The notes beneath the pieces were generated by a model that was not told the DNA's origin, made no database searches, and saw only the letters and a list, made by a program, of their open reading frames with translations. This document shows, piece after piece, positions 1 to 64,000 of a stretch of 64,000 bases of DNA. A program made the translations under genes and the position numbers. Source of the DNA: a virus (Duplodnaviria > Caudoviricetes); IMG/VR virus record IMGVR_UViG_3300021400_000095. The stretch is one strand, 5' to 3'. Each line of letters opens with the position of its first letter. Position 1 is the stretch's first letter.

Positions 1-42
1 ATTTTGTAATGTTGGTTTACTTCTAACTTCTTCCATGTCTTA

Positions 43-354
43 CTAATATAAATCATTATATCTGTTAATTCCTTGTTCATATGATGAAATTGCATCATCA
101 AGTGGATATGGTATTCTTAGCATAACCCCATCAGGAATTTCAAATTCCATAGAACCATATTCTGGGTTTGCTTGCATAATTAACCAAGCATAATCACCAT
201 TACCATAATAATCATATGATAATAAGTCAAGCCTTGTTTTACCTTTTTCATACTTTTCATAAAAATCAGTGTTTTTTTTAGGTATTTTACAAAAAGGTAC
301 AATCTTTATCTCACCATCAATCCTAAACTTTCTATATCTATCATATGATGCCAT
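43..354 (-). CDS. Baseplate wedge / tail-X (LysM-like, T4 gp53-like) protein
   Basis: RLDLLSYDYYG..YAWLIMQANP..IPDG.MLRIP pattern typical of gp53/tail-X; lies downstream of tape measure and baseplate genes. Confidence 0.6.
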   Translation of the reverse strand: MASYDRYRKFRIDGEIKIVPFCKIPKKNTDFYEKYEKGKTRLDLLSYDYYGNGDYAWLIMQANPEYGSMEFEIPDGVMLRIPYPLDDAISSYEQGINRYNDLY

Positions 355-356
355 AT

Positions 357-4031: not shown

Positions 4032-4070
4032 TATATTTTATAATAACTAAATTGTTTATTATTTTCAATA

Positions 4071-8870: not shown

Positions 8871-9347
8871 CTAATGTCTTTTATTTTTATTTTGTTTCCT
8901 TATGTACTTCTCATTATATTTCCCAACCAACTCAATTAACAATTTCATTACCTTACTTGGATTATTATTTATATCATGCTCCCATATCCTTATAATTGGT
9001 ATTCCATGTGCTAATGCCCACTCATCTTTTATTCTATCAACAAACTCATTGTGCTTTTGCATTGGGTTTTTCTCTTCCCAAACTTTACCATATCCATGAT
9101 AAAAATCACCATCTATTTCTACAATAATTTTACTTCCTGCTGGGCTTTCTATTAAAAAGTCATAATATCTCCCAATGTCTTCAGCCTTGAACTGATATGT
9201 ATATTTTATACCTAATTTATCCAAAAATTCCTTGGCAAACCTTTCTTCCAATTTTGAAGTACCATATTCTTTATGCTTTCTCTCTTTTGACTTCTTCTGT
9301 TTATTGCTTTTTTTTGCAATTTCTTTGTTCCTTATTGGTTGTGCCAT
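8871..9347 (-). CDS. DUF559/Vsr-like PD-(D/E)xK endonuclease
   Basis: SKLEERF, YYDF, IVEIDGDFYHG, D..K..WA...G..IIRIWE. Confidence 0.75.
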   Translation of the reverse strand: MAQPIRNKEIAKKSNKQKKSKERKHKEYGTSKLEERFAKEFLDKLGIKYTYQFKAEDIGRYYDFLIESPAGSKIIVEIDGDFYHGYGKVWEEKNPMQKHNEFVDRIKDEWALAHGIPIIRIWEHDINNNPSKVMKLLIELVGKYNEKYIRKQNKNKRH

Positions 9348-9355: not shown

Positions 9356-9889
9356 CTAAAATTTTGTATCAATTTCTGTTATTAGTGGATGTCTTAAATC
9401 TTTCTCAGACATAACTAAATCCTCAGTTCTATCAACACCAACCCTATTATAAATGTCATTGATTATATCATCTGTTATCATTAAACCCCTCTCAGATTCC
9501 TTATTATAATAATTATCAACTTTATATTCTACCTTTGATGTATCAGAAACTGATAAATAACCATGTGCAAATCCCCTTGGTACAAATACCCATTTTGGTG
9601 ATTCATCACCACTTAAATCAAATGAATATAATTTACCAAAATTTGGTGACTCCTTCCTTATGTCAATCACATAATCAACAATCCTACCTTCAATGCATCT
9701 TACAAGTTTTGCTTGTGCATATGGCATTTCTTGCCAATGCATACCCCTGAATACATTCTTTACCTTATTGTAAGACTGATTATCCTGCATTACTTTAAAA
9801 TCTAGGGTGTTATCAAACAAAACTGAAAAATACCCTCTTTCATCTTCAAATGTTCTTGCTTCAATTAATGTTGGTTCTGTGTAACTCAT
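9356..9889 (-). CDS. rmlC: dTDP-4-dehydrorhamnose 3,5-epimerase
   Basis: FEDERGYF, QDNQS, RGMHWQ, QAKLVRC..G...D..IDIR..SP.FG, FVPRGFAHG, YKVDNYY, SEKD. Confidence 0.93.
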   Translation of the reverse strand: MSYTEPTLIEARTFEDERGYFSVLFDNTLDFKVMQDNQSYNKVKNVFRGMHWQEMPYAQAKLVRCIEGRIVDYVIDIRKESPNFGKLYSFDLSGDESPKWVFVPRGFAHGYLSVSDTSKVEYKVDNYYNKESERGLMITDDIINDIYNRVGVDRTEDLVMSEKDLRHPLITEIDTKF

Positions 9890-9901: not shown

Positions 9902-10231
9902 TTATTTTATTTTTTTTATATCAAAAAATGGATTTGTCTCTGATAATAACTCAACAATATCCTCATAAAATTTACAATCTTCTTCAAAATTCATGACAGA
10001 TTCAGTTGATAATTCAAACCATTCATTCAATTTCCTTTCTGGCCAGTGTCTCTGATGTAACATTTTTTCAAGATAAAATGGATATTTTGTCTCATATTTC
10101 TTAACTAAAAATATCTCACTACCATTCCCTGTCTGTAACTTCTTTATCCTTTTTTCCACATCCCCCCTTGTCATACCAATCTTAAACATATTGTCATGAC
10201 CTGAATCACATAACAAATATACAAAAGCCAT
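9902..10231 (-). CDS. T5orf172/GIY-YIG-like domain protein
   Basis: FVYLL..KIGMT...RIKKLQTGN...LE..LH...EWF. Confidence 0.75.
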   Translation of the reverse strand: MAFVYLLCDSGHDNMFKIGMTRGDVEKRIKKLQTGNGSEIFLVKKYETKYPFYLEKMLHQRHWPERKLNEWFELSTESVMNFEEDCKFYEDIVELLSETNPFFDIKKIK

Positions 10232-14077: not shown

Positions 14078-16834
14078 TTATTCGTTGAAAGACACACTTT
14101 CAGGGTAGACAACAAATGTTATGCTAATATATTCAAGTGCAGGTGTAGGTTTAACAAGGATTTTTGCTGGAAGGATGTGTTGGTCTCTTGTTTCAGGTGT
14201 TGATTCAGTTTGAATTCTATAATCAACAATACCTCTATTAGACTTAACATCAGCAAGAATTGGTTCTACAAGTGACTTAAATTGTTTTTCAAGGGTTGCA
14301 TCATATTGTTCAAAGATAAGATGTTTAGAAGCCTCAACAACAAGTTTCTTAATTCTAAGCATAAGTCTTCTAACATTAATTCTATTAAGAGGGCTTTCCT
14401 TATCATATAATGTCTTATTACCCCAAACTTTAACACCATCTTGTGCAAATGTCTTGATAGGATTAACTCTATTTTCATAAAGTGTATCTTCATCAGAAAG
14501 AGTTGTCTTAATATCAGCCTTAATACAATCAATATTACCTCTTTCAGTACCAGCAGGTGCAAACCATGGGAATGAGTTATTATCTGTTGCAGCCATATTT
14601 CTAACAACATCCTTTGTTACAGGAAGTGTAAGATATCTCTTAGCAGAATTATCATAATATTTAATCCATGGCCAGTATGTACAAGCATAAGAAGATACAA
14701 TATCACTATCATTAACTGCTTCAGCAATTAAATCTGCTGTTTTAACTTCATTAACATCCATTGGTGAGTTAATGATATAAAGTGCATCACCACCTCTACC
14801 ATCCTCAGGGTCTTCAATCATATCAAGAGCATCTTCTACAAGAAGTGTGTGATGGAAGTAATCAATACCAGGAGTTGCAAACAAGTTAATATAAGAATCT
14901 TGTGGATTTGCAAATTGCATATAACCTGCAAGATATGCATAATAGTCACTTGTAATTGCATTTACTGGAAGATTAAGGTCAAGAGTTGGGTCAAGTACTA
15001 ACTCAGATGAATTAACATAATCAAATGGGCAACCTGAAACAATTGCATATTTAGATGCCTTATATTTATCTGTATTAGTTCTTTCAGCCCTATAAATATC
15101 CCAACCATCAAAGCCACCATATGGATAAACAGTGAACTTTCTTAAGTTAATGTCTTCATAAATTGTTCCCTCAGTCTGAGCCTCAGTAATAAGTCTTGGA
15201 AGTTTCTTTGATTGTGCAGCAGCTTGAAGTCCATCAACTGTTGTAAATGAATAACCAGATTCACTATCAACAAAAATCTTACTATTCATCAAGACATTTG
15301 TTCCAGAAACACTATTGTTATTTGGCATTGAAAGAATTGCATCAAGGTGGAAACCCTTAGTAAGTTTATCAGGGTCAGCATCACCCTTTCCATTTGCATA
15401 TGCAGTTACACCATTATAGTTAAGAACATCAACATCAAGGATATCTCTATTCAAGCCAAAATATTGTCTCTTAGGTTTAATGAAATCATTGAATTCAGTG
15501 TTATATGCAACATCAATTCTTTCACCACCATACTTAGGCATTGGATAACCTAAGAAACCACAAGGAACACAAGATTCAACACCATCTTCCTCTGAAATTT
15601 CAACTGTGATGTATTTTGATTTAGCAACATAGCCACCATCAAAAGTACCAATCTTAGCACCAATATAGTTATTAGTACCAGGCATCATTGAACAATTGGT
15701 GAATTTTTCAAGTACAACAGGTGATACATCACTATCATTGAAGTCTCTTACCCAAACATCAAATAAACCCTCATCAGGTCTGATTCTTTGAATAGAAATC
15801 TTAACTTGTCTATTAGCAGCATCACCATCAGAAATTGTATATACCTTGAAAAGTTTCTTAACATTGATTGCTTCATTAGTTGCTTCTTTAACCTCTGATA
15901 CAATCCAAGGGGTTTGTGCACATCTATATGTTTCTTTATAGTTTACATAATTTTCATTACCACTTGATTCAAGACCTGCTGTTGCAATATCTTCAAATTT
16001 AATTGTTTTATTTTCATTTTCAGGCCTTCTAAGTAAGTCTTGATATGCATAGTCATATAATGCTTCAATATAAACAGGTGCTGAACCTACAAGTGGGTCA
16101 GTGCTGAATACATTGTAAATATATGACCTATCAGTAGGATTAATTGAAACATTGTAACTTGTCTCAGTTGAAGCACTTACAATATTACCATTTTCATCTT
16201 CACTATACTTATTATATGTAATTTTAAGGCCAAACTTACCAAGTTCTACTTTACCATCATTTGAAACAGCAGTTCCACCACTAATTTTACCACTGAGTGG
16301 AATATTTGCTGATACACCACTAATCACACAGTTTGCATCATATGTGGCACTACTATAAGGAACAAGTTGTACTTTAGTAACAATAGGATTGAATGCTTCT
16401 TGTTGTGCTTTTTCACATTCACCACCATTAACATTAGCATAATAATTAGCCTTTGACCTAAGAATTACAAGTGGGTACTTTTTACTATCAATATTAGCAT
16501 AAACACCAAACACTTTACTATTTTCATAACCAGAGATACCAAGAACCCTAACAACATTAAGATTCTTTGATTCCTTCAAGTATTCTTTAGCAACATATGG
16601 AAGTTCATATTTAGGGAGGTCATTACCCTTATACTTTTCAGGTGATGTACCACCAAAGTAGTCTACAAAGTCAGCCCAATCAGTTACAGGTATTGCTTGA
16701 AATGCAGGTCCTTTAAGTGTTTCACCAACAAGACCAAGGCTAGTAATACCTAAGCTTTTAGCTGAGTAAAGAACATCTTTCTCTTCAGTATAAACACCTG
16801 GTGAAACATGACCACCTCTTGCATCACTTATCAT
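14078..16834 (-). CDS. Tail sheath protein (T4 gp18-like)
   Basis: VSPGVYTEEKD, GETLKGPAF, PWFAPAG..RG, LYENRVNPI, WGNKTL, LNRINVRRL. Confidence 0.93.
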   Translation of the reverse strand: MISDARGGHVSPGVYTEEKDVLYSAKSLGITSLGLVGETLKGPAFQAIPVTDWADFVDYFGGTSPEKYKGNDLPKYELPYVAKEYLKESKNLNVVRVLGISGYENSKVFGVYANIDSKKYPLVILRSKANYYANVNGGECEKAQQEAFNPIVTKVQLVPYSSATYDANCVISGVSANIPLSGKISGGTAVSNDGKVELGKFGLKITYNKYSEDENGNIVSASTETSYNVSINPTDRSYIYNVFSTDPLVGSAPVYIEALYDYAYQDLLRRPENENKTIKFEDIATAGLESSGNENYVNYKETYRCAQTPWIVSEVKEATNEAINVKKLFKVYTISDGDAANRQVKISIQRIRPDEGLFDVWVRDFNDSDVSPVVLEKFTNCSMMPGTNNYIGAKIGTFDGGYVAKSKYITVEISEEDGVESCVPCGFLGYPMPKYGGERIDVAYNTEFNDFIKPKRQYFGLNRDILDVDVLNYNGVTAYANGKGDADPDKLTKGFHLDAILSMPNNNSVSGTNVLMNSKIFVDSESGYSFTTVDGLQAAAQSKKLPRLITEAQTEGTIYEDINLRKFTVYPYGGFDGWDIYRAERTNTDKYKASKYAIVSGCPFDYVNSSELVLDPTLDLNLPVNAITSDYYAYLAGYMQFANPQDSYINLFATPGIDYFHHTLLVEDALDMIEDPEDGRGGDALYIINSPMDVNEVKTADLIAEAVNDSDIVSSYACTYWPWIKYYDNSAKRYLTLPVTKDVVRNMAATDNNSFPWFAPAGTERGNIDCIKADIKTTLSDEDTLYENRVNPIKTFAQDGVKVWGNKTLYDKESPLNRINVRRLMLRIKKLVVEASKHLIFEQYDATLEKQFKSLVEPILADVKSNRGIVDYRIQTESTPETRDQHILPAKILVKPTPALEYISITFVVYPESVSFNE

Positions 16835-18100: not shown

Positions 18101-18639
18101 TATCCATTAAACTCAGTTTCATCAACATAGGCTCCTTCACAGGTCACATAGAACGGCATTTTTCCGTACAATGTATTTTTATTGGCTGTCATTCCCATTT
18201 TCCCATCATTTGTTACTGTAAAATATATTCTATATTCAGGTGTTATATCAACACCAATATAATCACCTCTTTTGATATCACAACCATTTTCTTCCAATTC
18301 TTCCAAAAGAACACTGAAAATAATTGTTCCTGGTTTTGCATATAAACCCTTACTGATTGTTTCACTGTATGCTTTCATTTGAGTATCTTGTATTTCATAA
18401 ACACAAGTTAATTCAATTGGGGTTTTGAATCTTAAATCAGATTTCCTTGCTTCCTTATAAATATCATCAACCTTGGTCTTTTCCAAATCAACTTGATAAA
18501 GGATAATAGTTTGATTAGCATGTTGTTCCATATATTCTTTAGCAAAATCCATTTGAACATTATAATCTTCCCCTGAGAAGAATTTGTTGTTCCTCTTTAT
18601 TGGATTTTTTCTTCTAATTGGCATATTATCTAATTTCAT
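18100..18639 (-). CDS. Neck / head-closure protein (gp14-like)
   Basis: DIY.EA...RF..PIE, L.E...DIKRGD; gene order. Confidence 0.55.
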   Translation of the reverse strand: MKLDNMPIRRKNPIKRNNKFFSGEDYNVQMDFAKEYMEQHANQTIILYQVDLEKTKVDDIYKEARKSDLRFKTPIELTCVYEIQDTQMKAYSETISKGLYAKPGTIIFSVLLEELEENGCDIKRGDYIGVDITPEYRIYFTVTNDGKMGMTANKNTLYGKMPFYVTCEGAYVDETEFNG

Positions 18640-19484: not shown

Positions 19485-21518
19485 GTGAATACTAGTAATG
19501 AGATTGATGAGAAAAATAAAGCAATTGATGTTTTGAAAGAATATTCAGGTGAAAATCCATATCTTTTAGAATTAAAGAATGAAATTATATTAAAAAAACA
19601 TTTTGAAAAACTAAATGATTTTAATTGTGATTATATACTTAGAAATTACAATTTTCAACCAAAATTGATTAACAAAATTGTTAAGATTACTGATTGGTAT
19701 GGTGAAAAATTACAAAAAGATTTCCAATGTGAGTTTAAACCTGAAAAACTTCAAATAAAATATTTGCTTGGTGAAACTGAAAATACATACCATGTTTTGT
19801 TAAAATATAGGCAGAACATGGAATATATTTATATGTTTTTATCCAAAAAGGGGGTTATGACAAATTTTCTTATTAGTGATTACAACTTACTTGATGTTGA
19901 TTTTGATAGATATGATAGATTATCTGCAACATATAGACCTGATAAACCAAGAAAAATAAAAGAACATCAGAAGGCTGGAATAAAATTCCTATTATCAAGA
20001 AAAAAATGTATATTAGCAGATGACATGGGTTTAGCAAAAACAGCACAATTATCAATAGCATCTGTTGAAGGTAATTTTGATAATGTTTTAATAATTTGCC
20101 CAGCATCATTAAAAACTAATTGGTTTGATGAACTTTCATATTATGTACCAACAAGAGAAATTTCAATAATTGGTGGTGTTGGTGATATGAAAAAGAATGA
20201 ACTTGAAAAATATCTTGGATATGGTGTTGGAAAATCAGGAAAAAATATTCAGGAACTTCTACAAGAATCAAAAGAAAGAGGTAAATGGATTGATAATAGA
20301 TATGTTATTATTAATTATGATATTCTATCAGATGTTTATGAAATGCCAAAATCAAGAAAAAAGGCTGATATTATTGAAGCAAGGGAACATAGTCCAATTT
20401 TAAAGTTTATAGAAGGAAAAAAATCATTAATAATTATTGATGAAGCCCATAAACTCTCAAATATGAAATCCCAGCAATATAAAATAATATCTCAATTAAT
20501 TAATATTGGGAAACCTGATAGTGTATATCTTGCAACAGGAACACCAATTACTAATGACCCTGTAAATTATTTTAATATTCTTTCACTGATTGAAAATAAT
20601 ATAACTTCTGATTGGAAATATTATATGGAAAGGTATTGTGGTGCTAAATCATTTCCAAAAGATAATATTGAAAAGGAAAAAAGAGATAGAATTTCAAGGG
20701 AATTTATTTTTAATAAAGGGAAAAAAAATTGGTATGAACTAACAGATGAAGAAAAGAAAGAATTAAATAATTTAATAAATAAATCTGTTAAAATGAAAAC
20801 AATACCAATGGAGCCAACCCATTTGGATGAATTGATGGAAGTAACAAAACATATTTATTTAAGAAGAACAAAAGAAGATTTAGGTGGTCTTCCATCTAAA
20901 TATGTTTATGAAAAAATATATGATTTAACTGATGAACAAAAAGAAGAATATAATAAACTTTGGAGTGAATATGTTGAACAACAAAAAGAATTAGAACCTA
21001 ATAAAGAAATAAACAAGGAACTTCTTGAAGGTGCTATATATAGAAAATATCTTTCAAATCAAATGGTTCCTTACACAATTAATTTAGCTGAAAAATGTAT
21101 TAAAAGGGGTGAAAAGGTTATAATTGCTTGTTGTTATGATGAAGAACTTTATACTTTAAAAGATTATTTTGATGATAAATGTGTTGTTTATAATGGAAAA
21201 ATGAGTTTAAAACAAAAAGATGAAGCCAAAAATAAATTTATAAACAACCCTGAATGTATGGTATTTATTGGTAATATAGATAGTTGTGGTGTTGGTATTA
21301 ATCTGACTGTTAGTAGAGTTGTAATTTTTAATAATTTTTCATTTGTTCCCGGTATAAATAGACAAATGGAAGACAGGTGTTATAGACTTGGACAAACAAG
21401 GGACTGTCATATTTTTTATCAATTTTTTAGAGATACACAATATCAAAAAATGTGGGGCACAGTTCTGAAAAAAGAATTAAATATTAATCAAATTATTAAG
21501 AAAGAAAATGAAAAATAA
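19485..21518 (+). CDS. SNF2-family helicase
   Basis: LADDMGLAKT, IICPASLK.NW, DEAH, ATGTP, GVGINLT, QMEDRCYRLGQ; start moved to GTG 19485 just after a host-type promoter. Confidence 0.9.
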   Translation: MNTSNEIDEKNKAIDVLKEYSGENPYLLELKNEIILKKHFEKLNDFNCDYILRNYNFQPKLINKIVKITDWYGEKLQKDFQCEFKPEKLQIKYLLGETENTYHVLLKYRQNMEYIYMFLSKKGVMTNFLISDYNLLDVDFDRYDRLSATYRPDKPRKIKEHQKAGIKFLLSRKKCILADDMGLAKTAQLSIASVEGNFDNVLIICPASLKTNWFDELSYYVPTREISIIGGVGDMKKNELEKYLGYGVGKSGKNIQELLQESKERGKWIDNRYVIINYDILSDVYEMPKSRKKADIIEAREHSPILKFIEGKKSLIIIDEAHKLSNMKSQQYKIISQLINIGKPDSVYLATGTPITNDPVNYFNILSLIENNITSDWKYYMERYCGAKSFPKDNIEKEKRDRISREFIFNKGKKNWYELTDEEKKELNNLINKSVKMKTIPMEPTHLDELMEVTKHIYLRRTKEDLGGLPSKYVYEKIYDLTDEQKEEYNKLWSEYVEQQKELEPNKEINKELLEGAIYRKYLSNQMVPYTINLAEKCIKRGEKVIIACCYDEELYTLKDYFDDKCVVYNGKMSLKQKDEAKNKFINNPECMVFIGNIDSCGVGINLTVSRVVIFNNFSFVPGINRQMEDRCYRLGQTRDCHIFYQFFRDTQYQKMWGTVLKKELNINQIIKKENEK

Positions 21519-24932: not shown

Positions 24933-25865
24933 ATGAAGGGAATTATATTAGCTGGAGGTGCAGGAACAAGACTTCACCCAATTACAAAAGGAATCAGCAA
25001 GCAGCTACTTCCAATTTATGATAAACCTATGATTTATTACCCTCTGTCAATCCTTATGCTTGCTGATATAAAAGATATTCTTATCATTACAACACCTGAA
25101 GAACAATCAATGTTCAAGAGATTGCTTGGTAATGGTTCAGATTTTGGCATTAATCTCCAATATGCTGTTCAGGAAAAACCAAATGGTTTGGCTGAAGCAT
25201 TTATTATTGGTGAAGAATTCATTGGTGATGATGCTGTTTGTTTAATATTGGGTGATAATATTTTCCATGGTTCAAATATAAGTGTAAAGTTGAATTTGGC
25301 AAGAACCATTGTTGAAGATACTAAAAATGCAAGAGCAGTTGTCTTTGGTTATCAAGTATCTGACCCTGAAAGATATGGTGTTGCTGAAGTGACTAAGACT
25401 GATGTTGAATTTCCAAACAATTTATATTGTGTAAAATCACTTGAAGAAAAACCAAAGAATCCAAAATCAAATATTGCAGTAACAGGATTATACTTCTATC
25501 CAAATTCTGTTGTTAATGTAGCAAAAAATATTAAACCATCAGCAAGAGGTGAACTTGAAATTACTGAAGTAAATAATGTATATAATAATATGATTGCAAA
25601 TGATGGTGGAACAATGCTTGACCTTATTATGTTTGATAGGGGTTATGCTTGGCTTGACACTGGAACTTTTGATAGTCTATCAGATGCATCAAATTACATT
25701 GAAACAATTCAGAAAAGACAAGGTTTAAAAGTTGCTTGTTTGGAAGAAATTGCATATAATAAAGGATGGATTAGTAAACAACAACTTTTGGAAGCAGGTG
25801 AAAAATTAAAGAAAAATGATTATGGAAAATATCTATTGAATCTTATAAATAAAGCCATAGACTAA
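24933..25865 (+). CDS. rmlA: Glucose-1-phosphate thymidylyltransferase
   Basis: [62 protein letters not shown]. Confidence 0.96.
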
Positions 25866-33598: not shown

Positions 33599-33641
33599 TA
33601 GTGCTTTTTTTGGTTCTTATACTATTTATAAATAAAAAAAT

Positions 33642-35366: not shown

Positions 35367-35391
35367 TATGTTTATATAAAATGATAAAATA

Positions 35392-36279: not shown

Positions 36280-36291
36280 TTTATATATTTA
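36261..36291 (+). promoter_or_regulatory. Variant Bacteroidota-type promoter (polymerase C-half)
   Basis: TTTG-N19-TATATTTA, 16 nt before ATG 36308. Confidence 0.5.
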
Positions 36292-36307
36292 CAAAAAATT
36301 TAATGTG

Positions 36308-36406
36308 ATGAAAATTTTAAATAAAGGTAAATGTTTAGATTATGTATATGATATATCATTAGATGGCACTGTAGTTAATGCATTGGGTATGAATATCTTA
36401 TCAAAT
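36308..36406 (+). mobile_element. Split intein, C-fragment (33 aa)
   Basis: Block F YVYDIS, block G ILSN followed by Thr+1. Confidence 0.9.
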
Positions 36407-37894
36407 ACCGATGGGTTCAATTTCAAATTGCCTGATGAATCAAAATACAGATATACTAAAGAGCATCCATATGTCAGTACAGGTCTTTCAAGGGAAACTA
36501 AAAAAGATAAAGAATATGTTGGTTATGAAGCAGATGTTGCTGAATTTAATGACCAATATATGTGTGACATGCATTATGATGATAAAGCTGTTAACAAAAT
36601 GGGACTTGGCATAGACGAAATACTTAATTTCTCCTGCAACATTTCAAGAAAGAACTATTTGGATTATTTTCCAGAAAAGCCATATCCAAAGGATGTTAAG
36701 ATTGTTGGTAATACTTTAAAGTCAAAAAAATTGCCAATATATATACAGAATTTCATGGATAAGGGATTCAGATTGTTGTTACAGAATAAGGGTAGTGAAT
36801 TTCTTGAAGAGTATTACAATTATATTGAAAAGATTTACAATTTTAAGATACCACTTAAGGACATTGCCAGTAAAGGAAAGGTAAAGAAATCAATTGAGGA
36901 TTACATTGCTGATTGTGAAACAGTGACAAAGGCTGGAAATAAGAAATCAAGGCAAGCATGGATGGAGTTAGCAATTAAGAACAATGTAAAAGTTGATTTA
37001 GGTGAAACATTATATTATATAAACACAGGGACAAAGAAGTCACATTCTGATGTTAAGAGAATTACACATTATAATATGACTGATGATAGTGGTGAAATAA
37101 AAGATATAAAGACACAATTGGACAGAGAGTGGAAGAAAGCAGAAGATGGTAAAGCAGGTGTCAAGAAATCATTGAAATTTGATGAATGGGTAAAGAAACA
37201 TTATCCAAATGTAAAAATTAAGGATGAAATTGTTCTATGTGCTGAGTTATTACCAAGAGAAATTGTTGAATCAGATAAGGACTTTTATTGTGAAGAAGGA
37301 AAAGAATATAATGTTGAAAAGTACATTGACCAGTTCAATAAAAGAATTACACCACTATTAGTTTGTTTTTCAAAGGAAATCAGGTCAAAGATATTGATTA
37401 ATAAGCCAAATGAAAGGCAATATTTTACTGAAGAACAGACTGTTCTAACTTCAGGTGAGCCAAACAAGGAAGGAGACCAGGACACATATGAACAACTTAT
37501 GACAATGGAAGATAAGGAAATTAAGTTTTGGCTTGACCATCCTGAATGGAAGATTCCATTCTTAAAGGAATGTGATATGGATTGGGAAAAAATCAAGACA
37601 GATTATCTTGAAAGAAAAGAGAAGGAAAGACAATTTGGTATTGACAAAATTAGGGAAGAATTTGACAATGCAATTAACAATTTAACTCCTGAAGAAATTG
37701 AGAAGATTGATGATGGAAAGATACCAGCAAGTATTGAAAAAATTGCAGACATTGACCCATTGACTTTTAATTTTGTTAGTAAAATAGATAATAGTGTTGT
37801 TCTTGGTACTATTTATGATATCATAGATGCACAAACATATCAACAGGAAAAGAAAAGTTCTACAATGGAATATGTTCTTGAAAATAATAGTTAA
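36308..37894 (+). CDS. Family B DNA polymerase, C-terminal half preceded by C-intein
   Basis: TDG completes motif C; RKNY, K..G; ATG 36308 follows its own promoter-like element. Confidence 0.9.
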   Translation: MKILNKGKCLDYVYDISLDGTVVNALGMNILSNTDGFNFKLPDESKYRYTKEHPYVSTGLSRETKKDKEYVGYEADVAEFNDQYMCDMHYDDKAVNKMGLGIDEILNFSCNISRKNYLDYFPEKPYPKDVKIVGNTLKSKKLPIYIQNFMDKGFRLLLQNKGSEFLEEYYNYIEKIYNFKIPLKDIASKGKVKKSIEDYIADCETVTKAGNKKSRQAWMELAIKNNVKVDLGETLYYINTGTKKSHSDVKRITHYNMTDDSGEIKDIKTQLDREWKKAEDGKAGVKKSLKFDEWVKKHYPNVKIKDEIVLCAELLPREIVESDKDFYCEEGKEYNVEKYIDQFNKRITPLLVCFSKEIRSKILINKPNERQYFTEEQTVLTSGEPNKEGDQDTYEQLMTMEDKEIKFWLDHPEWKIPFLKECDMDWEKIKTDYLERKEKERQFGIDKIREEFDNAINNLTPEEIEKIDDGKIPASIEKIADIDPLTFNFVSKIDNSVVLGTIYDIIDAQTYQQEKKSSTMEYVLENNS

Positions 37895-38522: not shown

Positions 38523-39413
38523 TTATTCTTCTTTATATAAATTATTCATTCTATTCATCATGTCATTATATGATTTTGTTAGTTCATTGTCTTTAACATT
38601 ACTAACATCATCATGTGTAACAGGTTCATCTGTTTGTTTTGGAATAGAATTATTTTCTTGTTTTTCACCTGTTTCTTCACCATTATTTATTTCTTGTTTT
38701 GTAACTGGTTTTGCATCAGGTGCAGTCATTAAGTTATTATTAATATCAGTTTTTTGTTCAGTATTGTCAATAGGATTTTCTTTTTTCCCAAGCATATTTT
38801 GAACTTTTTGTCCAAGATTACTATTTTTAATTCTTGAAATTAAATTGTTAATAATTTGTTTTGCAGAATATTTACTATTTGTTTGTGTTTTAGGGGTTTC
38901 CTCAACATCAATATTTTTAACATCATCTTTTGTTATTGGTTTATCATCAATCTCAATTTCTTTTTCATTACTGAAATCATTATTTTTCAATTTATTTTGT
39001 TTATGAATATATCTTGCATTACCAATTGGAGCAATGTTATAGATAACTGACATTGAGTCATCACCTGTTTCTGATGAACCATTTGACATAAAACCTTCAA
39101 GAGAATCACCATCAAATTTATTTTTCATATCAATGTTCCAAGATTTAATTCTGTCAACCCTGAAATATTTCCATTTTGGAATACCTCTTTTTGTATCACC
39201 ACTTGGTTGGAAAGCCCTGACAACAGGATTATTTGCTGTTGTTAAACCATATGCAACAGGGTATATAGTTCTTGGTCCTTTCCCTTTACCACCTTTTTGG
39301 TCATCATATACAATAGAAACCGGGTGCATCCCACTGATTGCTTTATTAATCTTTGTATTGGATACACTCTCTAATAAAATTGTTTCTTTATATATTTGTT
39401 CAAATAAATCCAT
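38523..39413 (-). CDS. WYL-like domain protein
   Basis: I.Y...R.I.P.AYG...VRAFQ...WKYFRVDRI.SW. Confidence 0.6.
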   Translation of the reverse strand: MDLFEQIYKETILLESVSNTKINKAISGMHPVSIVYDDQKGGKGKGPRTIYPVAYGLTTANNPVVRAFQPSGDTKRGIPKWKYFRVDRIKSWNIDMKNKFDGDSLEGFMSNGSSETGDDSMSVIYNIAPIGNARYIHKQNKLKNNDFSNEKEIEIDDKPITKDDVKNIDVEETPKTQTNSKYSAKQIINNLISRIKNSNLGQKVQNMLGKKENPIDNTEQKTDINNNLMTAPDAKPVTKQEINNGEETGEKQENNSIPKQTDEPVTHDDVSNVKDNELTKSYNDMMNRMNNLYKEE

Positions 39414-40950: not shown

Positions 40951-41055
40951 ATATCATAGTAATTTATATATAAATATCTTATTAATTTAATTTCTATCTA
41001 AAAAATATTGACAATAATATCCATAAACATATTTTTTAAGAAAAATAAGTTTTTT

Positions 41056-42291
41056 ATGGATAGAAAAATTAAAGTTTTAGTTGTTCCATCAGACAGATTT
41101 GGTTGTGGGTTATGGAGGTCAGTTAAGCCACATACTAAATTAAATGAATTATATGGAGATGAATTTGATATTGATATTGAATATGAACCAAATTGGTTGG
41201 ATTTACCATCATTTGATAAATATGACATTATTCACTTCCATAAAGGTTTATATCAAGATATGGAACCTTTTAGAAATGCCCTTAAATATTTTAAGGAACA
41301 TAATATTGTAACAATTATGGACCTTGATGACCATTGGGAAGTTGGCCAATTCCACCCAATGTTCCAAACTGCAAGAAAAATGAAAATGGCAGAAAAAATT
41401 ACAGGAAATTTTGGTCTTGTTGATTATGTAACAACAACAACTGAAATTTTTGCTAATAAAATTAAGAAGTGGAACAAAAATGTTTTTGTTTTCCCAAATG
41501 CAATTGACCCAAATGATTCACAATTTTCAACAGAAAAAGAACAATCTGATAAAATTAGATTTGGATTTGTAATGGGTTCTTCACATAAAAGAGATATGGA
41601 ACAATTTTTTGGAACTGTTTCAACACTTCCTGAAGATGTCCTTAATAAAATACAAATTGTTCTTTGTGGATATGACCTTAGAGGACAAACATATGTCCAA
41701 AATCCTGATGGTACTATAACAACAAGACCAATTAAACCAACAGAATCTGTTTGGTTTGAATATGAAAGAAATGTTACTAATGACTTTAAAATTGTGTCAG
41801 ATGAATACAGGAATTTCTTATTTAATTTCTTGCCAAATGCACAATATCCTAAAGTAAATGAAGAACCATATAGAAGAGAATGGACCAAGGATGTAAATAG
41901 TTTTGGAACACATTACAAATATATTGATGTGTTGATTGCACCATTGGACACAAATCAATTCAATGAAGTTAAATCAGAATTAAAATTTGTTGAAGCAGGT
42001 TTTACTAATACTGCATTGATTTGCTCAGATTTTGGTCCATATCACTTGGTTGGAAAAAGTATATTTGAAAGAGGTGGTGGAATTAATGAAAATGGAAATT
42101 GTGTTCTTATTGACCCTGCAAAGAAACATAAAGCATGGTCTAAAGCAATTACTAGATTAACAAGAAATCCTGAACTAATTGATAAACTTAAATATAACCT
42201 TCATGAATTTGTTAAAGATGAATATAATCTTGATAATGTAACAAAAAGAAGAGCAGAATGGTATAAATCAATAATTAAAAAAGAGGACTAA
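41056..42291 (+). CDS. Glycosyltransferase (GT-B/GT4-like)
   Basis: GCG.WR..PH, DLDD.W, PNAID, DVLIAPL..FN.VKSELKFVEAG; start reset to MDRKIK. Confidence 0.8.
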   Translation: MDRKIKVLVVPSDRFGCGLWRSVKPHTKLNELYGDEFDIDIEYEPNWLDLPSFDKYDIIHFHKGLYQDMEPFRNALKYFKEHNIVTIMDLDDHWEVGQFHPMFQTARKMKMAEKITGNFGLVDYVTTTTEIFANKIKKWNKNVFVFPNAIDPNDSQFSTEKEQSDKIRFGFVMGSSHKRDMEQFFGTVSTLPEDVLNKIQIVLCGYDLRGQTYVQNPDGTITTRPIKPTESVWFEYERNVTNDFKIVSDEYRNFLFNFLPNAQYPKVNEEPYRREWTKDVNSFGTHYKYIDVLIAPLDTNQFNEVKSELKFVEAGFTNTALICSDFGPYHLVGKSIFERGGGINENGNCVLIDPAKKHKAWSKAITRLTRNPELIDKLKYNLHEFVKDEYNLDNVTKRRAEWYKSIIKKED

Positions 42292-44701: not shown

Positions 44702-45697
44702 ATGAATTTATTTGATTTCTACAGAACAAAGCATCAGCAATTAATAGGCTATAATCCACTTACAACAATATGTTCAATTGATTTTTCAATAAAATATGTT
44801 GAAGATGCTGATTTTAAAAAAAGAGGTGAAGAACTTAACAAATCTATTGATACTAAAGAGTTTAATAATCTTGCCATTGTTGTAAGAAGAATGATAAGTG
44901 TTCCTAGTAATGGTAATAAGATTATTGTTAAGCCACTTATCAGTGAATATATTATTAATTTTGAAGAAGGAAAACCATTAACAGATTATACTGATGAAAT
45001 ATTGAAATTAATTCCAAAAGGTTGTTGTATTACAGCATATAATGGGTATAGAATGGATTTCATTGCATTAGAAAGAAAATTCAAAATTAATTTGAAGGAT
45101 TATATTCTGGTTGATACAATGAGGATTGAAAAACATTTTGACAATGATTGTTTAAGAGAAATGATGTGTATTGACATAAATAAATATCCTAAGACAAAAC
45201 TTGGTTCTGATGGAAAGATGCATATTGAAAGTCTTCTTAAATCATATATAAATTTGGAAATGTATGAATCACCATTTGTAAAAAAGCACATGTCATCCAA
45301 TGATGCTTTGGTTAATCTTGATTTATTAATGACACAATTTTACATGTATGGTTTTACTTGCTTTGAAGAAATGCAAGAAATGACAGAGCATTTCATGGAT
45401 ATGCAAGATAAGGATGATTACATGTTATATCATATAAAAAACTATGATATTTTCTATACTAAAATAAATAGGGCAGAATATCTGATGAACAAAAAATTTG
45501 TCTTTAATTTTGGTAGAATTGAAGGTCTTACTGTAGAAGGTCTTGATAATGACAGATTAATACATATGTTGAAAAAATACATGATTCCATTTAAAAGGGA
45601 TGGTGTTGTAGTAAATAAACATGACCCATATCTTTATGAAATTTTATATGTATTAAGGTTAGAATATTTAAGAAGGATTAAAAATAAATTGATTTAA
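44702..45697 (+). CDS. DEDD 3'-5' exonuclease-like protein, divergent
   Basis: AYNGYRMDF, LVDT, H..SNDA; ExoI Glu missing. Confidence 0.45.
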   Translation: MNLFDFYRTKHQQLIGYNPLTTICSIDFSIKYVEDADFKKRGEELNKSIDTKEFNNLAIVVRRMISVPSNGNKIIVKPLISEYIINFEEGKPLTDYTDEILKLIPKGCCITAYNGYRMDFIALERKFKINLKDYILVDTMRIEKHFDNDCLREMMCIDINKYPKTKLGSDGKMHIESLLKSYINLEMYESPFVKKHMSSNDALVNLDLLMTQFYMYGFTCFEEMQEMTEHFMDMQDKDDYMLYHIKNYDIFYTKINRAEYLMNKKFVFNFGRIEGLTVEGLDNDRLIHMLKKYMIPFKRDGVVVNKHDPYLYEILYVLRLEYLRRIKNKLI

Positions 45698-47124: not shown

Positions 47125-47448
47125 TTAGCCTTCATAACTTAAACCTGGTGCTCCATCTCCATATGTATCAAGCCAAATCTTGTTTATTACCTTTTGTCCT
47201 TCTTTCCATTCATACTCATAATCGTCAATGATTCTTGTTGCTTCTGCATTTAATGCATTACATAATCTTGTTAGAACAATATCCCTGAATGCTTCTTCTT
47301 CTGTAGGCTCACCCCATCTGTCATAAACACTTCCCCCATCTTCAAAATCTGCATTAAAATCATAATCCTCTTTCAGTACTTTCTTCACACTCTCAGCAAC
47401 AATCTGCCTGAGAGTGTTTTCATTTAGTTTTATTATATTCTTTTTCAT
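47125..47448 (-). CDS. Leader-bearing small protein
   Basis: MKKNIIKLNENTLRQIVAESVKKVLKE; start reset to ATG 47448. Confidence 0.65.
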   Translation of the reverse strand: MKKNIIKLNENTLRQIVAESVKKVLKEDYDFNADFEDGGSVYDRWGEPTEEEAFRDIVLTRLCNALNAEATRIIDDYEYEWKEGQKVINKIWLDTYGDGAPGLSYEG

Positions 47449-50397: not shown

Positions 50398-51510
50398 ATG
50401 GCAAAATTAACAGAACAAGAAATGCTTCAAGTTGTTGAAGAAAGTATAAAGAAAATTGAAAATAAGGATTTTACTGCATATTTTTTAGTAATTGACACAA
50501 AAGGAAACCCATCAGGTTCTCTTGAATACATTTATCAAACAGCATTCACTTTAAGAGAACTTGGTTATAATGCAGTAATAATTCACAATGATAAAGAATT
50601 TGTTGGTGTTGAGGAATGGCTTGGAAAGAAATATGCTGATTTACCACATAAGAATTTTGAAACAGAAAATGTTGAGATTGGGCCTTCTGACTTTTTATTC
50701 ATTCCTGAAATTTTTGCAAACATTGTTGGTCAATTAAAGAATATTAGTTGTAAAAAAATAATGATAGTTCAAAACTATAATTATTTACCTGAATTCATGC
50801 CAATTTCAAGTACTTTGGATGATATGAAGATTAATGATGTTGTAACAACAACTAATGTTCAGGCAACAAAGGTAAAGGAATATTTTCCAACAGTTCAAAC
50901 ACATGTTGTTGCACCAAGTATTAAAAAGGTTTTTAGAAATAGTGATAAACCAAGAAAGTTAATTATAAATGTTGTTTCCAAGAATCAAGAAGATGTTTAT
51001 AGAATTATGAAACCATTCTATTGGAAATATCCTATTTACAAGTGGATTTCATTCAGGGAACTAAGAGGTCTTGACCAAGAAACTTTAAGTACTGCACTAA
51101 GGGAAACACCTATAACTGTTTGCATTGATGCAGAAACTAATTTTGGATATGTTGAACTTGAAGCACTAAGATGTGGCTCAATAGTATTAGCAAAAATACC
51201 AAGCACACCTAGTGATTGGAATCTTGAAACTGACAAGAATGGTGAGCAACATTTAACTGATGCATGTGTTTGGTTTGATAACATTGACAGTGTTCCTGAT
51301 ATGCTTGCAAGTATTATTAGAACATGGACACTTGATAGAATTCCTTCAGAAGTATATAATAATCTACATAAATTTGATTTAATGTTCACACCTGAGCAGC
51401 AATCAAAAGAAATTGAAAGAGTTTATGGGCATGACATCTTTGAAAAAAGATTAAATGATTTGAAAGAATTCCACATTCAATTAAAGAATAATATAAATGA
51501 GAATAAATAA
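50398..51510 (+). CDS. Glycosyltransferase (GT-B-like)
   Basis: G..IY..A..L...GY, IPE, NFG...LEALRCG. Confidence 0.65.
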   Translation: MAKLTEQEMLQVVEESIKKIENKDFTAYFLVIDTKGNPSGSLEYIYQTAFTLRELGYNAVIIHNDKEFVGVEEWLGKKYADLPHKNFETENVEIGPSDFLFIPEIFANIVGQLKNISCKKIMIVQNYNYLPEFMPISSTLDDMKINDVVTTTNVQATKVKEYFPTVQTHVVAPSIKKVFRNSDKPRKLIINVVSKNQEDVYRIMKPFYWKYPIYKWISFRELRGLDQETLSTALRETPITVCIDAETNFGYVELEALRCGSIVLAKIPSTPSDWNLETDKNGEQHLTDACVWFDNIDSVPDMLASIIRTWTLDRIPSEVYNNLHKFDLMFTPEQQSKEIERVYGHDIFEKRLNDLKEFHIQLKNNINENK

Positions 51511-51513
51511 AAT

Positions 51514-52305
51514 ATGAAAGATTTAACAGTAATTGTTCCAATACATGAATATACTGAAGAAGTAGAAAAGTTACTTACAAATGCAGTTGAGAGTTACAAG
51601 AAAATTGCAGATGATGAAAATATTTTAATGTTTGTTGGCCCTGCCAAAGTTTTGGATAAAGTCAAAAAAATGTCAGTTTTAGATGGAAACAACAATGTTG
51701 TGTTTCTTGAAAACAAGGATATTGATTTTTGTACACAAATAAATGTTGCAGTAGATGCATGTGTAACAAAATATTTCTCAATTCTTGAATTTGATGATTT
51801 GTATATGCCAAACTGGTTTAAGAATGCAGAAGCATATATGGAATTAGATAATAACATTTCAGTTGTATTACCATTAACTGAAATTGTTATGGCTGATAAA
51901 ATGGAAGATGGACCTGTTGGTTATGTAAATGAGGCTGTTTGGGCAACATCTTTTTCTGATGAAATTGGTTATCTTGATATTGAAGCACTTTTAACTTATA
52001 TGAATTTTAATACTACAGGTGGAATTTTTAACAAGGAAGATTTTATTAAAATTGGAAAACTTAAGAAATCAATTAAATTAACCTATTGGTATGAATATTT
52101 ATTAAGAAGTGTATATAATGGTAAAAAGGTATATGTTGTACCAAAAGTTGGATATCAACATTTCTTGAATAGAAAGGGTTCAATTTCAGACACATATAAT
52201 AATACTTTAACACCTGATGAAGCTGATTTCTGGATTGAATTAGCACAAAAAGACTACTTATTCAACAAAGAAAGAGATAAGTCACACTATCAATTTGAGC
52301 AATAA
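51514..52305 (+). CDS. Glycosyltransferase family 2-like
   Basis: LTVIVPIH, N.AV..C.TKYF.ILEFDD. Confidence 0.7.
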   Translation: MKDLTVIVPIHEYTEEVEKLLTNAVESYKKIADDENILMFVGPAKVLDKVKKMSVLDGNNNVVFLENKDIDFCTQINVAVDACVTKYFSILEFDDLYMPNWFKNAEAYMELDNNISVVLPLTEIVMADKMEDGPVGYVNEAVWATSFSDEIGYLDIEALLTYMNFNTTGGIFNKEDFIKIGKLKKSIKLTYWYEYLLRSVYNGKKVYVVPKVGYQHFLNRKGSISDTYNNTLTPDEADFWIELAQKDYLFNKERDKSHYQFEQ

Positions 52306-52437: not shown

Positions 52438-53310
52438 ATGGGAAGAGGAAGAAAACCAAAAGAAAGAAAAGGTTATTTTTATGAAAAAGAAGAACAAGCA
52501 GTAATAGACTACATTAATTCAACAAATAACATTGAAAAAAACCATATTTTTAATACCATATTATTTCCTGCTTTTAGTAAAATGATTGAATCAATCATTA
52601 GAAGATATAAATTATATGTCCCTGATGAAGATTTTGACCAAACATTTAATGATACTATATCATATTTGATGACAAAAATCATGCATTATAAGCCTATTAT
52701 TTATGAATATGAAGAAATTGATTCAATACCTGATGGCATAATACCTGTAATGGTTAATGAAGTTGATAAGAAAGAAATTTTTAAAAATGCCACAAGCGGT
52801 AGTCCAAAATATATTATCATAAATTCACTTGATGATATTGTACCATATGAATTAAATGAGAAGAAATATAGAGCCTTTTCATATTGTCAAACAATTTGTA
52901 AAAATTATTTAATGTTTAAGGGCATACAATATGTTAAAGGACAACAAAGAAATTTGCCATATGAATCAGATTCATTTGAAAATAATTACAAATATGCAAC
53001 AGAAGAAAACAATAGTTATATTTTGGCTGAAAAATTGATAAAAAAATCATCAAATGAAATCCTAAAGATGGTTAAATCACCTAAAGAATATGATTTAAAT
53101 GATAGTGAACTAAAAGTTGGTTATGCTCTTGTTGATTTGTTAAACAATTGGGACAAGTTGGTGATTGAAAATGGTAGTAATAAACTCCAAAAAAACTCAG
53201 TTCTTTATTTCTTAAGAGAAGAAACAATGATGTCAACAAAATTAGTTAGGGACAATATGAAGAAATTTAAAACATTATATTATCTATTAAAGGAAAAGGA
53301 ACTTGAATAG
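52438..53310 (+). CDS. Putative phage sigma-like (late, T4 gp55-like) transcription factor
   Basis: YF...E.AV..Y, F.KM.E.II, AFSY..TI.KNYL region-2-like motif. Confidence 0.5.
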   Translation: MGRGRKPKERKGYFYEKEEQAVIDYINSTNNIEKNHIFNTILFPAFSKMIESIIRRYKLYVPDEDFDQTFNDTISYLMTKIMHYKPIIYEYEEIDSIPDGIIPVMVNEVDKKEIFKNATSGSPKYIIINSLDDIVPYELNEKKYRAFSYCQTICKNYLMFKGIQYVKGQQRNLPYESDSFENNYKYATEENNSYILAEKLIKKSSNEILKMVKSPKEYDLNDSELKVGYALVDLLNNWDKLVIENGSNKLQKNSVLYFLREETMMSTKLVRDNMKKFKTLYYLLKEKELE

Positions 53311-57241: not shown

Positions 57242-57242
57242 G

Positions 57243-59777: not shown

Positions 59778-59804
59778 AACCACCTAAAATTAGGTGGTTT
59801 TTTT
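59778..59804 (+). terminator. Terminator after phoH
   Basis: AACCACCTAA..TTAGGTGGTT followed by a T tract. Confidence 0.7.
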
Positions 59805-59863
59805 AATTTTGACCCCTTGATTTTTATAAAAAATACTTTATTTTTTATAAAAAAACAAATGAT

Positions 59864-60298: not shown

Positions 60299-60324
60299 AC
60301 TATTTATTATTAAAATAGATACAA

Positions 60325-60714: not shown

Positions 60715-60745
60715 AAAAAGAGAGTTAATCAACTCTCTTTTTTTT
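60714..60745. terminator. Bidirectional terminator
   Basis: AAAAAAGAGAGTT-AATC-AACTCTCTTTTTT. Confidence 0.8.
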
Positions 60746-61445: not shown

Positions 61446-61450
61446 ATTAA

Positions 61451-62368
61451 TTAATCAAAAATTCCAATAATTTCAAAAAGATTATTTATATCTTCAACAA
61501 GGCTTTCTTTTGAATATGTCTTTGATTTTATTTGTTCAAAAATTGCAGAAACTTTTTTAGCTGAAGCACTATCACCACTATTCTCAAATTCATCCTTTTT
61601 CTTCAACATTTTTGATTCACATATTTCCTTATATTTGTTGAAGATTTCTTCAGGATTATTTGATTTACCAAGTTCCATTACAATTTGTTTTTCATCTTCA
61701 TTTAAAATATTAGCATATTTTTCATTGAATTCTTTAACTAAATTTTCAGCAAAACCATCAATGTTTTTTGAAGGTGCAAATGAAACAATATTTTCTCTTT
61801 TATTAATATCCTCTCTTAAAACTTTAATAGCAGCACTAAATTCAGCCAAATTTCTTGCAGATTTTTTGTTTTCAACAATGTATTCAATTGCTGAGTCAAG
61901 TTCTGTATTCTCTTCAGCTAAATGTGCATCAGCACTTTCTCCTAAATACTTATAAGCACTTGCAAGAACTTCTCCTAATTTCTTAACATCTTCTTTAAGT
62001 GTTTTTGCAATAACCTTGTTTTCTGCAAAATTATTTACAAAATAATCAATATCAGAATTTGTACCAGCCTTTCTAATACTTTCATATATGTCATGTAAGG
62101 TACTTAAATTCTTTGAAGACTTAATTGTATTTACATATTTAGCAATAATTGATTTTCCTTTAGTTGTTTCAATTAATAAACCAGATACACCTTCAAAAGA
62201 TTCTTTAATATACCCAAATGATTTATTGGATATTTCTTCAGCCTTTTCATTTATCATTATTTCATGAAGCCTCTCCATAAAACTATTATTAATGTCTTCT
62301 TGAAGTTGCTTAAGTTCAGCACTGTTGTTTATCTTATTTAAATTTATATTGTATGTTCTCATAATCAT
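61451..62368 (-). CDS. Putative prohead scaffold/core protein
   Basis: Directly after portal; helical, many [IL]xE sites. Confidence 0.45.
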   Translation of the reverse strand: MIMRTYNINLNKINNSAELKQLQEDINNSFMERLHEIMINEKAEEISNKSFGYIKESFEGVSGLLIETTKGKSIIAKYVNTIKSSKNLSTLHDIYESIRKAGTNSDIDYFVNNFAENKVIAKTLKEDVKKLGEVLASAYKYLGESADAHLAEENTELDSAIEYIVENKKSARNLAEFSAAIKVLREDINKRENIVSFAPSKNIDGFAENLVKEFNEKYANILNEDEKQIVMELGKSNNPEEIFNKYKEICESKMLKKKDEFENSGDSASAKKVSAIFEQIKSKTYSKESLVEDINNLFEIIGIFD

Positions 62369-62390
62369 ATTTTTTTAATAAATAGTTTTG

Positions 62391-64000
62391 TTAAATGATT
62401 TGTTCAGTGTCACCATCTAATTCATTGTAAAAATCTGTTTCAGTATAACCACTTTCCTTGTTTTCATCATCTGATGAATCACTATCTTCAACTTCTTCAC
62501 TAATTATGTTTTTATCTGAATCATCAAGCAAATTATCAATCTTGTCAAAAATATTACCAACAACCTCATTTATAAAAACATTCTTGCTTTCAAAATCAAA
62601 AGGCTCTTCAACATAATCTGGTGATTCCTTGATACATTTATTCAATAAATCAAAATATTGTTCAGTAAATGTTTTAACTTCATTAATTACAGGCTTTTTC
62701 TTTTTCCTTGATTCCATTGGACCACCATTATCTGCTTCAGGTGCTTCTGACATGTCCATTGTGTCCTCAGTTCCACCCATGTCACCCATGTCTTCAGAAC
62801 CAGCACTTCCAAGTGAATCCATATTAAGTGAACCACCTCCAATGTCAGGACTACCACCAGGGCCACCACCCATGTCCCCCATTTCATCATTACTTTGTGC
62901 TTGTTGCTGACCACCATTCAATGCATCATAATCACCATATACTCTATCTACATCATCAAACACACCTGTTTTCTTAATTATGCTTGCTGTGTTTTCAAGT
63001 TCAGCAGCCATTGCCTTCTCCAACCTGATTTCTAATAACATGTCTTTGATTTCTTCATCTGTCATCTTCATGATTTTTTTCAATACCAAATGAAGTGACA
63101 TTAATGGCATACCAATACCAGGGTCTGCTAAAGCAGCAGTTGCTGTTCCAATTCTCTTTGTAATGTCTTCAAGTTCAAGTGCTTCAATTTGTGCTGATGG
63201 ATTGTTTAATGATAAACTGAAATTCATTAATTCATCATCAAGCCCAAGAAAATGAAGGTGAACCATTGCAACTTTATTTAATTCCATTAATAGATATTGT
63301 TGAATAGTGTTTATCATTCTGGAAAACCTTACATCCAATAATGATAAATTCTGACCCTTTCCTTGTGCCTCTTGGAAATTTAAGAAAGTTTTAGGTACTC
63401 TTAAAGCAGCAAATATTTTGTTCTGCATATAATTAATATCATCCATTTGAGTTGGATTTTGTGCAGATGGCAAATTCTCAATTGGTGTAGGTGCAGAAGG
63501 GTCTCTGACTGGAATAAAATAATCAGTTGAAACATCCATGAAGTTCTTTCTTAAATCAACTTGACCTGTTTGTGGGTCAATAACAGGTGTTCTCTTAAAC
63601 TGATTAGCAAATTCTTGAATAAATGCAGGAACATCTTGGTCATCAATTGCACCAACATAAACCTTAAACACCCTTCTTTCAATACTCTTATCCAATCTGT
63701 AAATCAACATGGCATCTTCCATCATAGACCACATTCTCCATGCCCTTCTTGCTTTATGCAAATGACTTACACCATATGGTAAAAATAAACTGTCTTTTAA
63801 TAATCTAAAATGTGCAACCTGCCAATCTTTATATGGTGTTGCTTCATTATGACCAACCCAAACAAATCTTGTTTCATCTGGCTTTAAATCTTGAATTTGA
63901 TTTGGTAATACACCTGAATACATTGAAGTATATCCATTTTCAACTCTGTCCATTTCATAAACAGGTAACTGCTTCCAACCTAAAACACCATTTTTTTGGT
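62391..64000 (-). CDS. Portal protein (T4 gp20-like), 5' end outside window
   Basis: AHFRL, LPYG.S.L..ARR.W, MEDAMLIYR, ERRVF, DYFIP, ALRVPK; frame stays open to the window edge. Confidence 0.9.
   Translation of the reverse strand, partial: QKNGVLGWKQLPVYEMDRVENGYTSMYSGVLPNQIQDLKPDETRFVWVGHNEATPYKDWQVAHFRLLKDSLFLPYGVSHLHKARRAWRMWSMMEDAMLIYRLDKSIERRVFKVYVGAIDDQDVPAFIQEFANQFKRTPVIDPQTGQVDLRKNFMDVSTDYFIPVRDPSAPTPIENLPSAQNPTQMDDINYMQNKIFAALRVPKTFLNFQEAQGKGQNLSLLDVRFSRMINTIQQYLLMELNKVAMVHLHFLGLDDELMNFSLSLNNPSAQIEALELEDITKRIGTATAALADPGIGMPLMSLHLVLKKIMKMTDEEIKDMLLEIRLEKAMAAELENTASIIKKTGVFDDVDRVYGDYDALNGGQQQAQSNDEMGDMGGGPGGSPDIGGGSLNMDSLGSAGSEDMGDMGGTEDTMDMSEAPEADNGGPMESRKKKKPVINEVKTFTEQYFDLLNKCIKESPDYVEEPFDFESKNVFINEVVGNIFDKIDNLLDDSDKNIISEEVEDSDSSDDENKESGYTETDFYNELDGDTEQII

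Follow-up and report, generated by a model that had tools for sequence, protein, structure and literature searches.

The 64,000-nucleotide stretch of DNA analysed here (positions 1-64000 of the Caudoviricetes virus record IMGVR_UViG_3300021400_000095; hereafter the window), which holds a structural and replication core of a jumbo phage, is almost devoid of the dinucleotide CG. An exact count gives 10 CG where base composition predicts 1,313, an observed-to-expected ratio (rho) of 0.008, and a 135-kb composite of the window and contigs of related strains contains 25 against 2,790 expected. This purge is genuine and extreme, belongs to one lineage and is upheld by selection; it resembles restriction-site avoidance without being confined to 4-8 bp sites, and its kinetics do not fit decay through methylation.

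Loss of the CG word across the window

A preliminary description of this DNA had reported about ten CG at ten listed positions against roughly a thousand expected, common GC, CC and GG, and arginine encoded almost only by AGR. The recount finds exactly ten, all at the coordinates listed. The ratio is 1.01 for GC and 1.27 for both CC and GG, the excess of CA/TG that the description had proposed to compute is present (1.38), and the window genes use 720 AGR codons and no CGN. Across 66 genes, CG stands at 0/290 for codon positions 1-2, 2/354 for positions 2-3 and 8/406 for the codon boundary, with 0/20 in the non-coding DNA, so that the depletion is independent of codon usage, as in restriction-site avoidance, and codon bias is ruled out as its cause. 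The near-absence of CG thus stands, since the ratio is far from ordinary and codon bias alone does not produce it. Low G+C is likewise ruled out, because in 41 G+C-matched loci of relatives CG never falls below 0.31, and an assembly artefact was rejected because strains from other samples are equally CG-poor.

Confinement to specific 4-8 bp sites is not seen, as all sixteen NCGN words are reduced about 10-fold or more, non-palindromes included, with CCGG the best tolerated. The window also lacks GATC entirely (0 against about 154 expected), and AGCT, CTAG and CCWGG are partly avoided.

Phage identity and restriction of the purge to one lineage

Genes for the tail tube, baseplate, portal, terminase and major capsid, for a split polymerase B and for RecA, helicase and NrdD, with gp19-, gp20- and gp23-like genes among them, identify the window as part of a T4-like jumbo phage of ~353 kb. 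It overlaps a 352.7-kb contig of sample SHIW14-1 (ENA ERZ28612966 scaffold_15, 352,732 bp) over 13.7 kb with zero differences; from their labels, the samples are presumably rumen studies. Cultured relatives are remote, the best portal matches reaching only 37%. Promoter-like TAnnTTTG sites lie upstream of genes, and Shine-Dalgarno-like words precede only 3 of 82 genes; TAnnTTTG promoters without Shine-Dalgarno sequences are the pattern of Bacteroidota and point to a host in that phylum. One contig of the phage family was binned with a Bacteroidales genome, and the host is probably a member of this order; a DNA search of 401 Bacteroidales genomes for a host link returned nothing convincing.

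Strains of the same species from more than 10 other samples, 0.5-3.5% apart, all have CG ratios of 0.00-0.02. By comparison, 145 loci of relatives range from 0.28 to 1.17 (median 0.70), which agrees with the earlier suggestion that the depletion goes beyond the ordinary. Since the nearest relatives, 87% identical in the tail tube, keep CG, this lineage must have lost the word after parting from them. The absence of GATC is a separate, older and stricter constraint: most of the family has no GATC at all, among them two complete genomes with about 900 expected each, and a single GATC was met in 461 kb of strain sequence. A minority of relatives carry GATC (for example L047, L049, L061, L139 and L148). 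In two relatives, G001 and G031, CCGG and CGCG are near zero while other CG words persist, and a third, G002, avoids ACGT; the pattern of G001 and G031 is ordinary site avoidance existing beside the full purge.

Selection versus mutation

Gain and loss of CG between strains were compared at 6,428 synonymous C/T sites preceding G, using a two-state comparison with other contexts. Loss of CG is 10 times that of other synonymous C (bootstrap 6.8-16.7), and gain is 0.04 times (0.02-0.065), that is, about 25 times rarer. Selection alone at a scaled strength (S) of 5.5 predicts a 5.5-fold loss and a 0.022-fold gain, whereas mutation alone would need a 250-fold loss, an unchanged gain (1-fold) and no sites in common between strains; CG is in fact kept in 42% of pairwise comparisons. 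By simple arithmetic, selection at S = 5.5 combined with about twofold hypermutability fits both loss and gain. Because gain is suppressed and loss is raised only about 10-fold, the data argue for selection rather than methylation and deamination, and CG is very probably kept out by ongoing purifying selection, not by mutation. The preliminary description had placed CpG methylation with deamination among the possible causes, and the kinetics do not support this as the main driver; another of its proposals, something that targets CG-containing DNA, names the right class of cause.

Arginine content equals that of relatives, and at positions where relatives have CGN arginine codons no excess of drift to Cys, His, Gln or Trp was detected. 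At four-fold sites, comparison with the relatives gives no information on substitution paths because of saturation. The cost per CG appears to be small and graded, with scaled selection of about 5, unlike the all-or-none cost of GATC, because a patch of five CGs in nrdD (see below) persists while GATC is met once in all the strain sequence.

Residual CG sites

All 33 residual CG sites examined could be removed by one synonymous transition. Several are common to strains about 1% apart locally, one is common to strains 5-11% apart, and where a site is polymorphic the alternate state is TG or CA in nearly every case. Within the window, the CG at 14083-14084 lies at a codon boundary, is removable by a synonymous transition and is present in 3/3 strains about 1% apart locally, and the two at 18154-18166, in CGG and CCG contexts, are also synonymously removable and present in 2/2 strains. 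Those at 21350-21351, 29720-29721 and 39321-39322 lie in CCGG according to the exact count. The CG at 36409-36410 has a CCG context and falls in the C-terminal half of the split DNA polymerase B, while count and strain comparison place those at 36616-36617 and 47223-47224 in ACGA and TCGT contexts, respectively; the one at 52797-52798 is polymorphic, with TG in four other strains. Survivors are in excess in the CCG context relative to opportunity (17/28, p=0.004), a bias given little weight because the relative G002 leans likewise and the Bacteroides phage DAC15 does not.

About 16.4 kb to the left of the window, a 30-bp G+C-rich patch with five CGs lies in a conserved stretch of nrdD (L272:18190-18240). 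It persists in two samples and, shortened, in a third, and another strain has three of the CGs; the patch resembles a small piece of DNA acquired by recombination from a donor that contains CG. No donor was found, the DNA search of the 401 Bacteroidales genomes giving weak short matches only.

Convergence with cultured Bacteroides phages

The same depletion occurs in two cultured Steigviridae with Bacteroides hosts, crAss001 (MH675552) and DAC15 (MT074136), whose CG ratios outside the transfer RNA (tRNA) genes are 0.022 and 0.021, compared with 0.72 in crAss002 and 0.56 in Flavobacterium phage immuto. These are podoviruses unrelated to the jumbo phage; its depletion is roughly double theirs, and its CA/TG ratio is raised further (only 1.12-1.15 in crAss001 and DAC15). 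crAss001 shares with the jumbo phage the order of survivors, CCGG (0.20 and 0.08, respectively) exceeding one-strand CCG (0.033 and 0.016) and the rest (0.010 and 0.004), a gradient missing from DAC15. Searches of the complete crAss001 and DAC15 genomes revealed no C5 or N4/N6 methyltransferase, and no gene was convincingly common to them and the 135 kb of jumbo phage sequence. Both podoviruses have tRNA arrays, with 25 tRNAs in crAss001, 13 in DAC15 and none in crAss002; tRNA count does not discriminate, however, as there are 23 in G001 and 16 in G002, both relatives that contain CG. The same purge in unrelated phages of related hosts, with no methyltransferase found, points to the host side.

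Phage-encoded candidates

The preliminary description had singled out three genes for testing on CG-containing and CG-free DNA. They encode a Vsr/DUF559-like PD-(D/E)XK nuclease (8871-9347, minus strand), a T5orf172/MUG113 (GIY-YIG-like) protein (9902-10231, minus strand), and a zinc-finger-repeat homing-endonuclease-like protein with a weak Mom-like domain (33642-35366, plus strand), the last located between the polymerase halves. The first two have orthologues family-wide, and all three do in two complete relatives, at identities of 66-72%, 58-69% and 42-54%, respectively. As the CG ratios of these relatives are 0.55 and 0.64, none of the three is supported as a lineage-specific cause, though a changed specificity may apply. 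A paralogue of the third gene at 11286-12191 matches homing-endonuclease PHROGs. Further paralogues combining nuclease and Mom-like domains lie at L408:10329-12026 and L409:10329-12236, and the copy adjoining the major capsid gene differs between strains.

A single nuclease-like gene of the window proved to be lineage-restricted, both complete relatives lacking it; it encodes a rare, degenerate DEDDh (ExoX/DnaQ-like) exonuclease (44702-45697, plus strand), located between dUTPase and a GMP reductase/IMP dehydrogenase-like gene. Its first acidic motif is incomplete, its homologues form four clusters among 1.8 billion representatives, and its fold model is of low confidence (predicted local distance difference test score, pLDDT, 51) with weak DnaQ-fold matches only. 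No link of this gene to CG emerged, nor was a tie to other CG-free DNA found. Nothing supports a role as a deoxydinucleotidase: it is of the DEDDh type, and deoxydinucleotidases belong to the DEDDy class (PMC11706625).

A search with an M.MpeI-like profile, in which positive controls were found, detected no C5-methyltransferase in 135 of the ~353 kb, and the gene lists of the same parts contain no Pfam methylases. Distant family members (L282, L288, L315, L324, L329 and others) carry a compact M.MpeI-like C5-methyltransferase in the replication cluster, usually between recA and an exonuclease gene (E 7e-45 to 4DKJ), and have CG ratios of 0.42-0.84; in this phage that slot holds another gene. 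Among 160 viral loci with M.MpeI-like enzymes of predicted specificity, the lowest CG ratios are 0.05-0.16. One Bacteroidales prophage-like contig (L431, contig 139 of G047) has a split M.MpeI-like methyltransferase, with a catalytic open reading frame followed by short ones downstream, and a normal CG ratio of 0.99, and a small phage contig (L317) has a split M.SssI-like methyltransferase and a CG ratio of 0.053.

Some further features of the phage were recorded. A glycan-synthesis cluster (GT2, TupA ATP-grasp, Glf, DUF4422 and GT92) adjoins the baseplate genes at L545:3879-12484, and RmlA, RmlC and glycosyltransferase-like genes are scattered through the window (9356-9889, 24933-25865, 41008-42291 and 50398-52305); both sets of host-like glycan genes are also almost CG-free. 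An 1,165-aa protein with an ART-PolyVal ADP-ribosyltransferase domain is encoded among head genes (L449:1929-5426). DNA polymerase B occupies two genes at 31103-37894, separated by the homing-endonuclease-like gene and another open reading frame, and its halves are adjacent in the relative G002.

Possible agents and competing explanations

The reading favoured here, with confidence about evenly balanced, is that selection acts on the CG word because of a CG-reading activity met when the phage infects Bacteroidales. Each CG would carry a small cost during infection, imposed by a host-side activity whose effect rises with CG dose; the phage would escape by purging CG instead of methylating it, and the same pressure would have led to independent purges in crAss001 and DAC15. 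Encoding of the agent by the host is more likely than by the phage, and a location on the host side overall has an even chance of being right. Because sampled Bacteroidales DNA has ordinary CG (0.64-1.65), the agent is unlikely to be a classical restriction system that reads two bases and protects the whole host genome by self-methylation, and a graded cost is better matched by a dose-dependent sensor or by a patchy enzyme of low efficiency. The most concrete candidate would be an ApeA-type sensor of CG deoxydinucleotides released by DNA turnover, which would cleave tRNAs and so abort infection; an enzyme that cuts at CG or damages its bases could do as well, provided that it is inefficient or patchily distributed. 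According to a preprint, Ec2ApeA is a HEPN tRNase that co-purifies with the deoxydinucleotide dpCG; both dpCG and its 5-methyl form activate it, and its cutting of tRNAs aborts infection (bioRxiv 10.64898/2026.01.26.701840). Of 301 Bacteroidales genomes, 9 have a HEPN_Apea domain scoring above the Pfam cut-off; a search of the PDB gave no ApeA structure match. An ApeA-type sensor specifically is a lead rather than a result, and on balance an improbable one.

Several points count against the favoured reading. The strain test rests on 29 CG-bearing sites, on non-independent pairs, in the presence of recombination and under a two-state model, and a mixture of extremely hypermutable sites with a few protected ones is formally conceivable. 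CA/TG is 1.38-1.41 compared with 1.22-1.25 in relatives, as deamination would give. No agent was found in the 135 kb read, the host is not placed to genus, and the unread ~62% of the genome (about 218 kb) may hold a nuclease or methyltransferase; the convergence could also come from different phage-encoded nucleases. Regarding ApeA, the available preprint text describes Ec2ApeA as binding pdNG generally, with dpAG the strongest stabiliser, and its authors trace the ligand to degradation of host DNA (bioRxiv 10.64898/2026.01.26.701840). Both crAss001 and DAC15 are AG-rich, and dpCG is at most a putative ligand of the Bacteroidales homologues.

Among the competing explanations, a CG-preferring nuclease of the phage itself, resembling T4 EndoII, could destroy host DNA while the phage is spared by its lack of CG rather than by cytosine modification, with repair of rare self-cuts as the source of a graded cost. 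This would produce selection rather than mutation, as seen, its target exists in Bacteroidales DNA, and most of the phage genome is unread; but the named candidates are common to CG-containing relatives, the 44702 product resembles exonucleases, from which recognition of a word inside the DNA would not be expected, and no gene in the part read is convincingly common with crAss001 or DAC15, which leaves the idea possible yet doubtful. Less probable still is that CG is marked by a CpG methyltransferase, of phage or host, and that the cost comes either from damage due to methylation or from restriction dependent on 5-methylcytosine (Type IV) when the phage enters its next host. Selection with mild hypermutation (up to about 3-fold) and the raised CA/TG would both fit, and M.MpeI-like enzymes exist in distant family members and the Bacteroidales prophage-like contig; the 135 kb, the recA-exonuclease slot, crAss001 and DAC15 yielded no such enzyme, however, and Bacteroidales loci that have one are not CG-poor.

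Pure mutational decay through long-term CpG methylation and deamination is very unlikely. It would explain the CA/TG values and the alternation of polymorphic CG with TG or CA, but the required 250-fold hypermutability, unsuppressed gain and lack of common sites are contradicted by the strain data, the viral loci and family members with M.MpeI-like enzymes (specificities predicted) remain well above the ratio seen here, and arginine is retained through AGR. Stacked avoidance of many ordinary CG-containing restriction sites has a precedent in the relatives that avoid single words (CCGG and CGCG, or ACGT) and in this phage's clear avoidance of GATC and partial avoidance of AGCT, CTAG and CCWGG; because all sixteen NCGN words are depleted and the classic site CCGG survives best, it is highly improbable. 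Escape from CpG sensing by the animal (TLR9) or a physical constraint on the DNA, suggested by the gut habitat, is scarcely credible, given that CG is kept by relatives from apparently similar samples and by crAss002, a phage of the human gut.

Comparison with known systems and significance

The avoidance of restriction sites by phages (Rusinov et al. 2018, PMC6286503, as cited in PMC12707154) is a close parallel, in that a DNA word is lost in all frames by selection, and the zero GATC of this phage is a textbook case. The CG purge differs in concerning a two-base word with every flank, in tolerating dozens of sites and a five-site cluster, and in that neither cognate host methylation nor host CG depletion is seen in the sampled Bacteroidales loci. 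In Mollicutes, CpG under-representation accompanies M.MpeI and M.SssI (Wojciechowski et al. 2013, as cited in PMC11282364), and a CG deficit with TG/CA excess is common to both cases. The jumbo phage, in contrast, has no C5-methyltransferase in the part read, is depleted more deeply than any of the 160 viral loci with such enzymes, and in strain data shows suppressed gain, not runaway loss. T4 endonuclease II (denA) degrades host DNA at targets marked by a CG base pair and spares phage DNA (PMC2764454); T4 owes this protection to hydroxymethylcytosine rather than to loss of the word, and the part of the jumbo phage that was read showed no EndoII-like gene specific to the lineage. Ec2ApeA, a dpCG-activated bacterial sensor with homologues in Bacteroidales, may be linked to the jumbo phage, and the available preprint text reports no effect on phage genome composition (bioRxiv 10.64898/2026.01.26.701840).

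Among vertebrate RNA viruses, CpG is suppressed by dose-dependent selection exerted by the host sensor ZAP. As it concerns another host domain and another nucleic acid, this case is an analogy only. No report of CG-purged phage genomes was found in a literature search whose coverage excluded most subscription journals. What this locus adds is strain-level evidence for selection together with a family-wide contrast. It is conceivable, if distinctly tentative, that Bacteroidota have an innate immune pathway, so far undescribed, that reads CG in phage DNA, either as a site or as released dpCG, with no need for self-methylation; such a pathway would be a bacterial counterpart of ZAP and TLR9 and would have driven both the jumbo phage and Steigviridae to rewrite whole genomes.

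A genome of 350 kb in which less than 1% of a two-base word is left, and in which that word is still under selection, implies a DNA-reading activity poorly covered by known restriction, methylation and nuclease systems. Since the trait is present in the cultured crAss001 and DAC15 and absent from crAss002, it can be tested at the bench now. For the engineering of Bacteroides phages, inserted CG-containing DNA may bear a hidden cost. Such work would reveal a novel class of immunity in bacteria or else a novel means by which phages discriminate their own DNA from that of the host.

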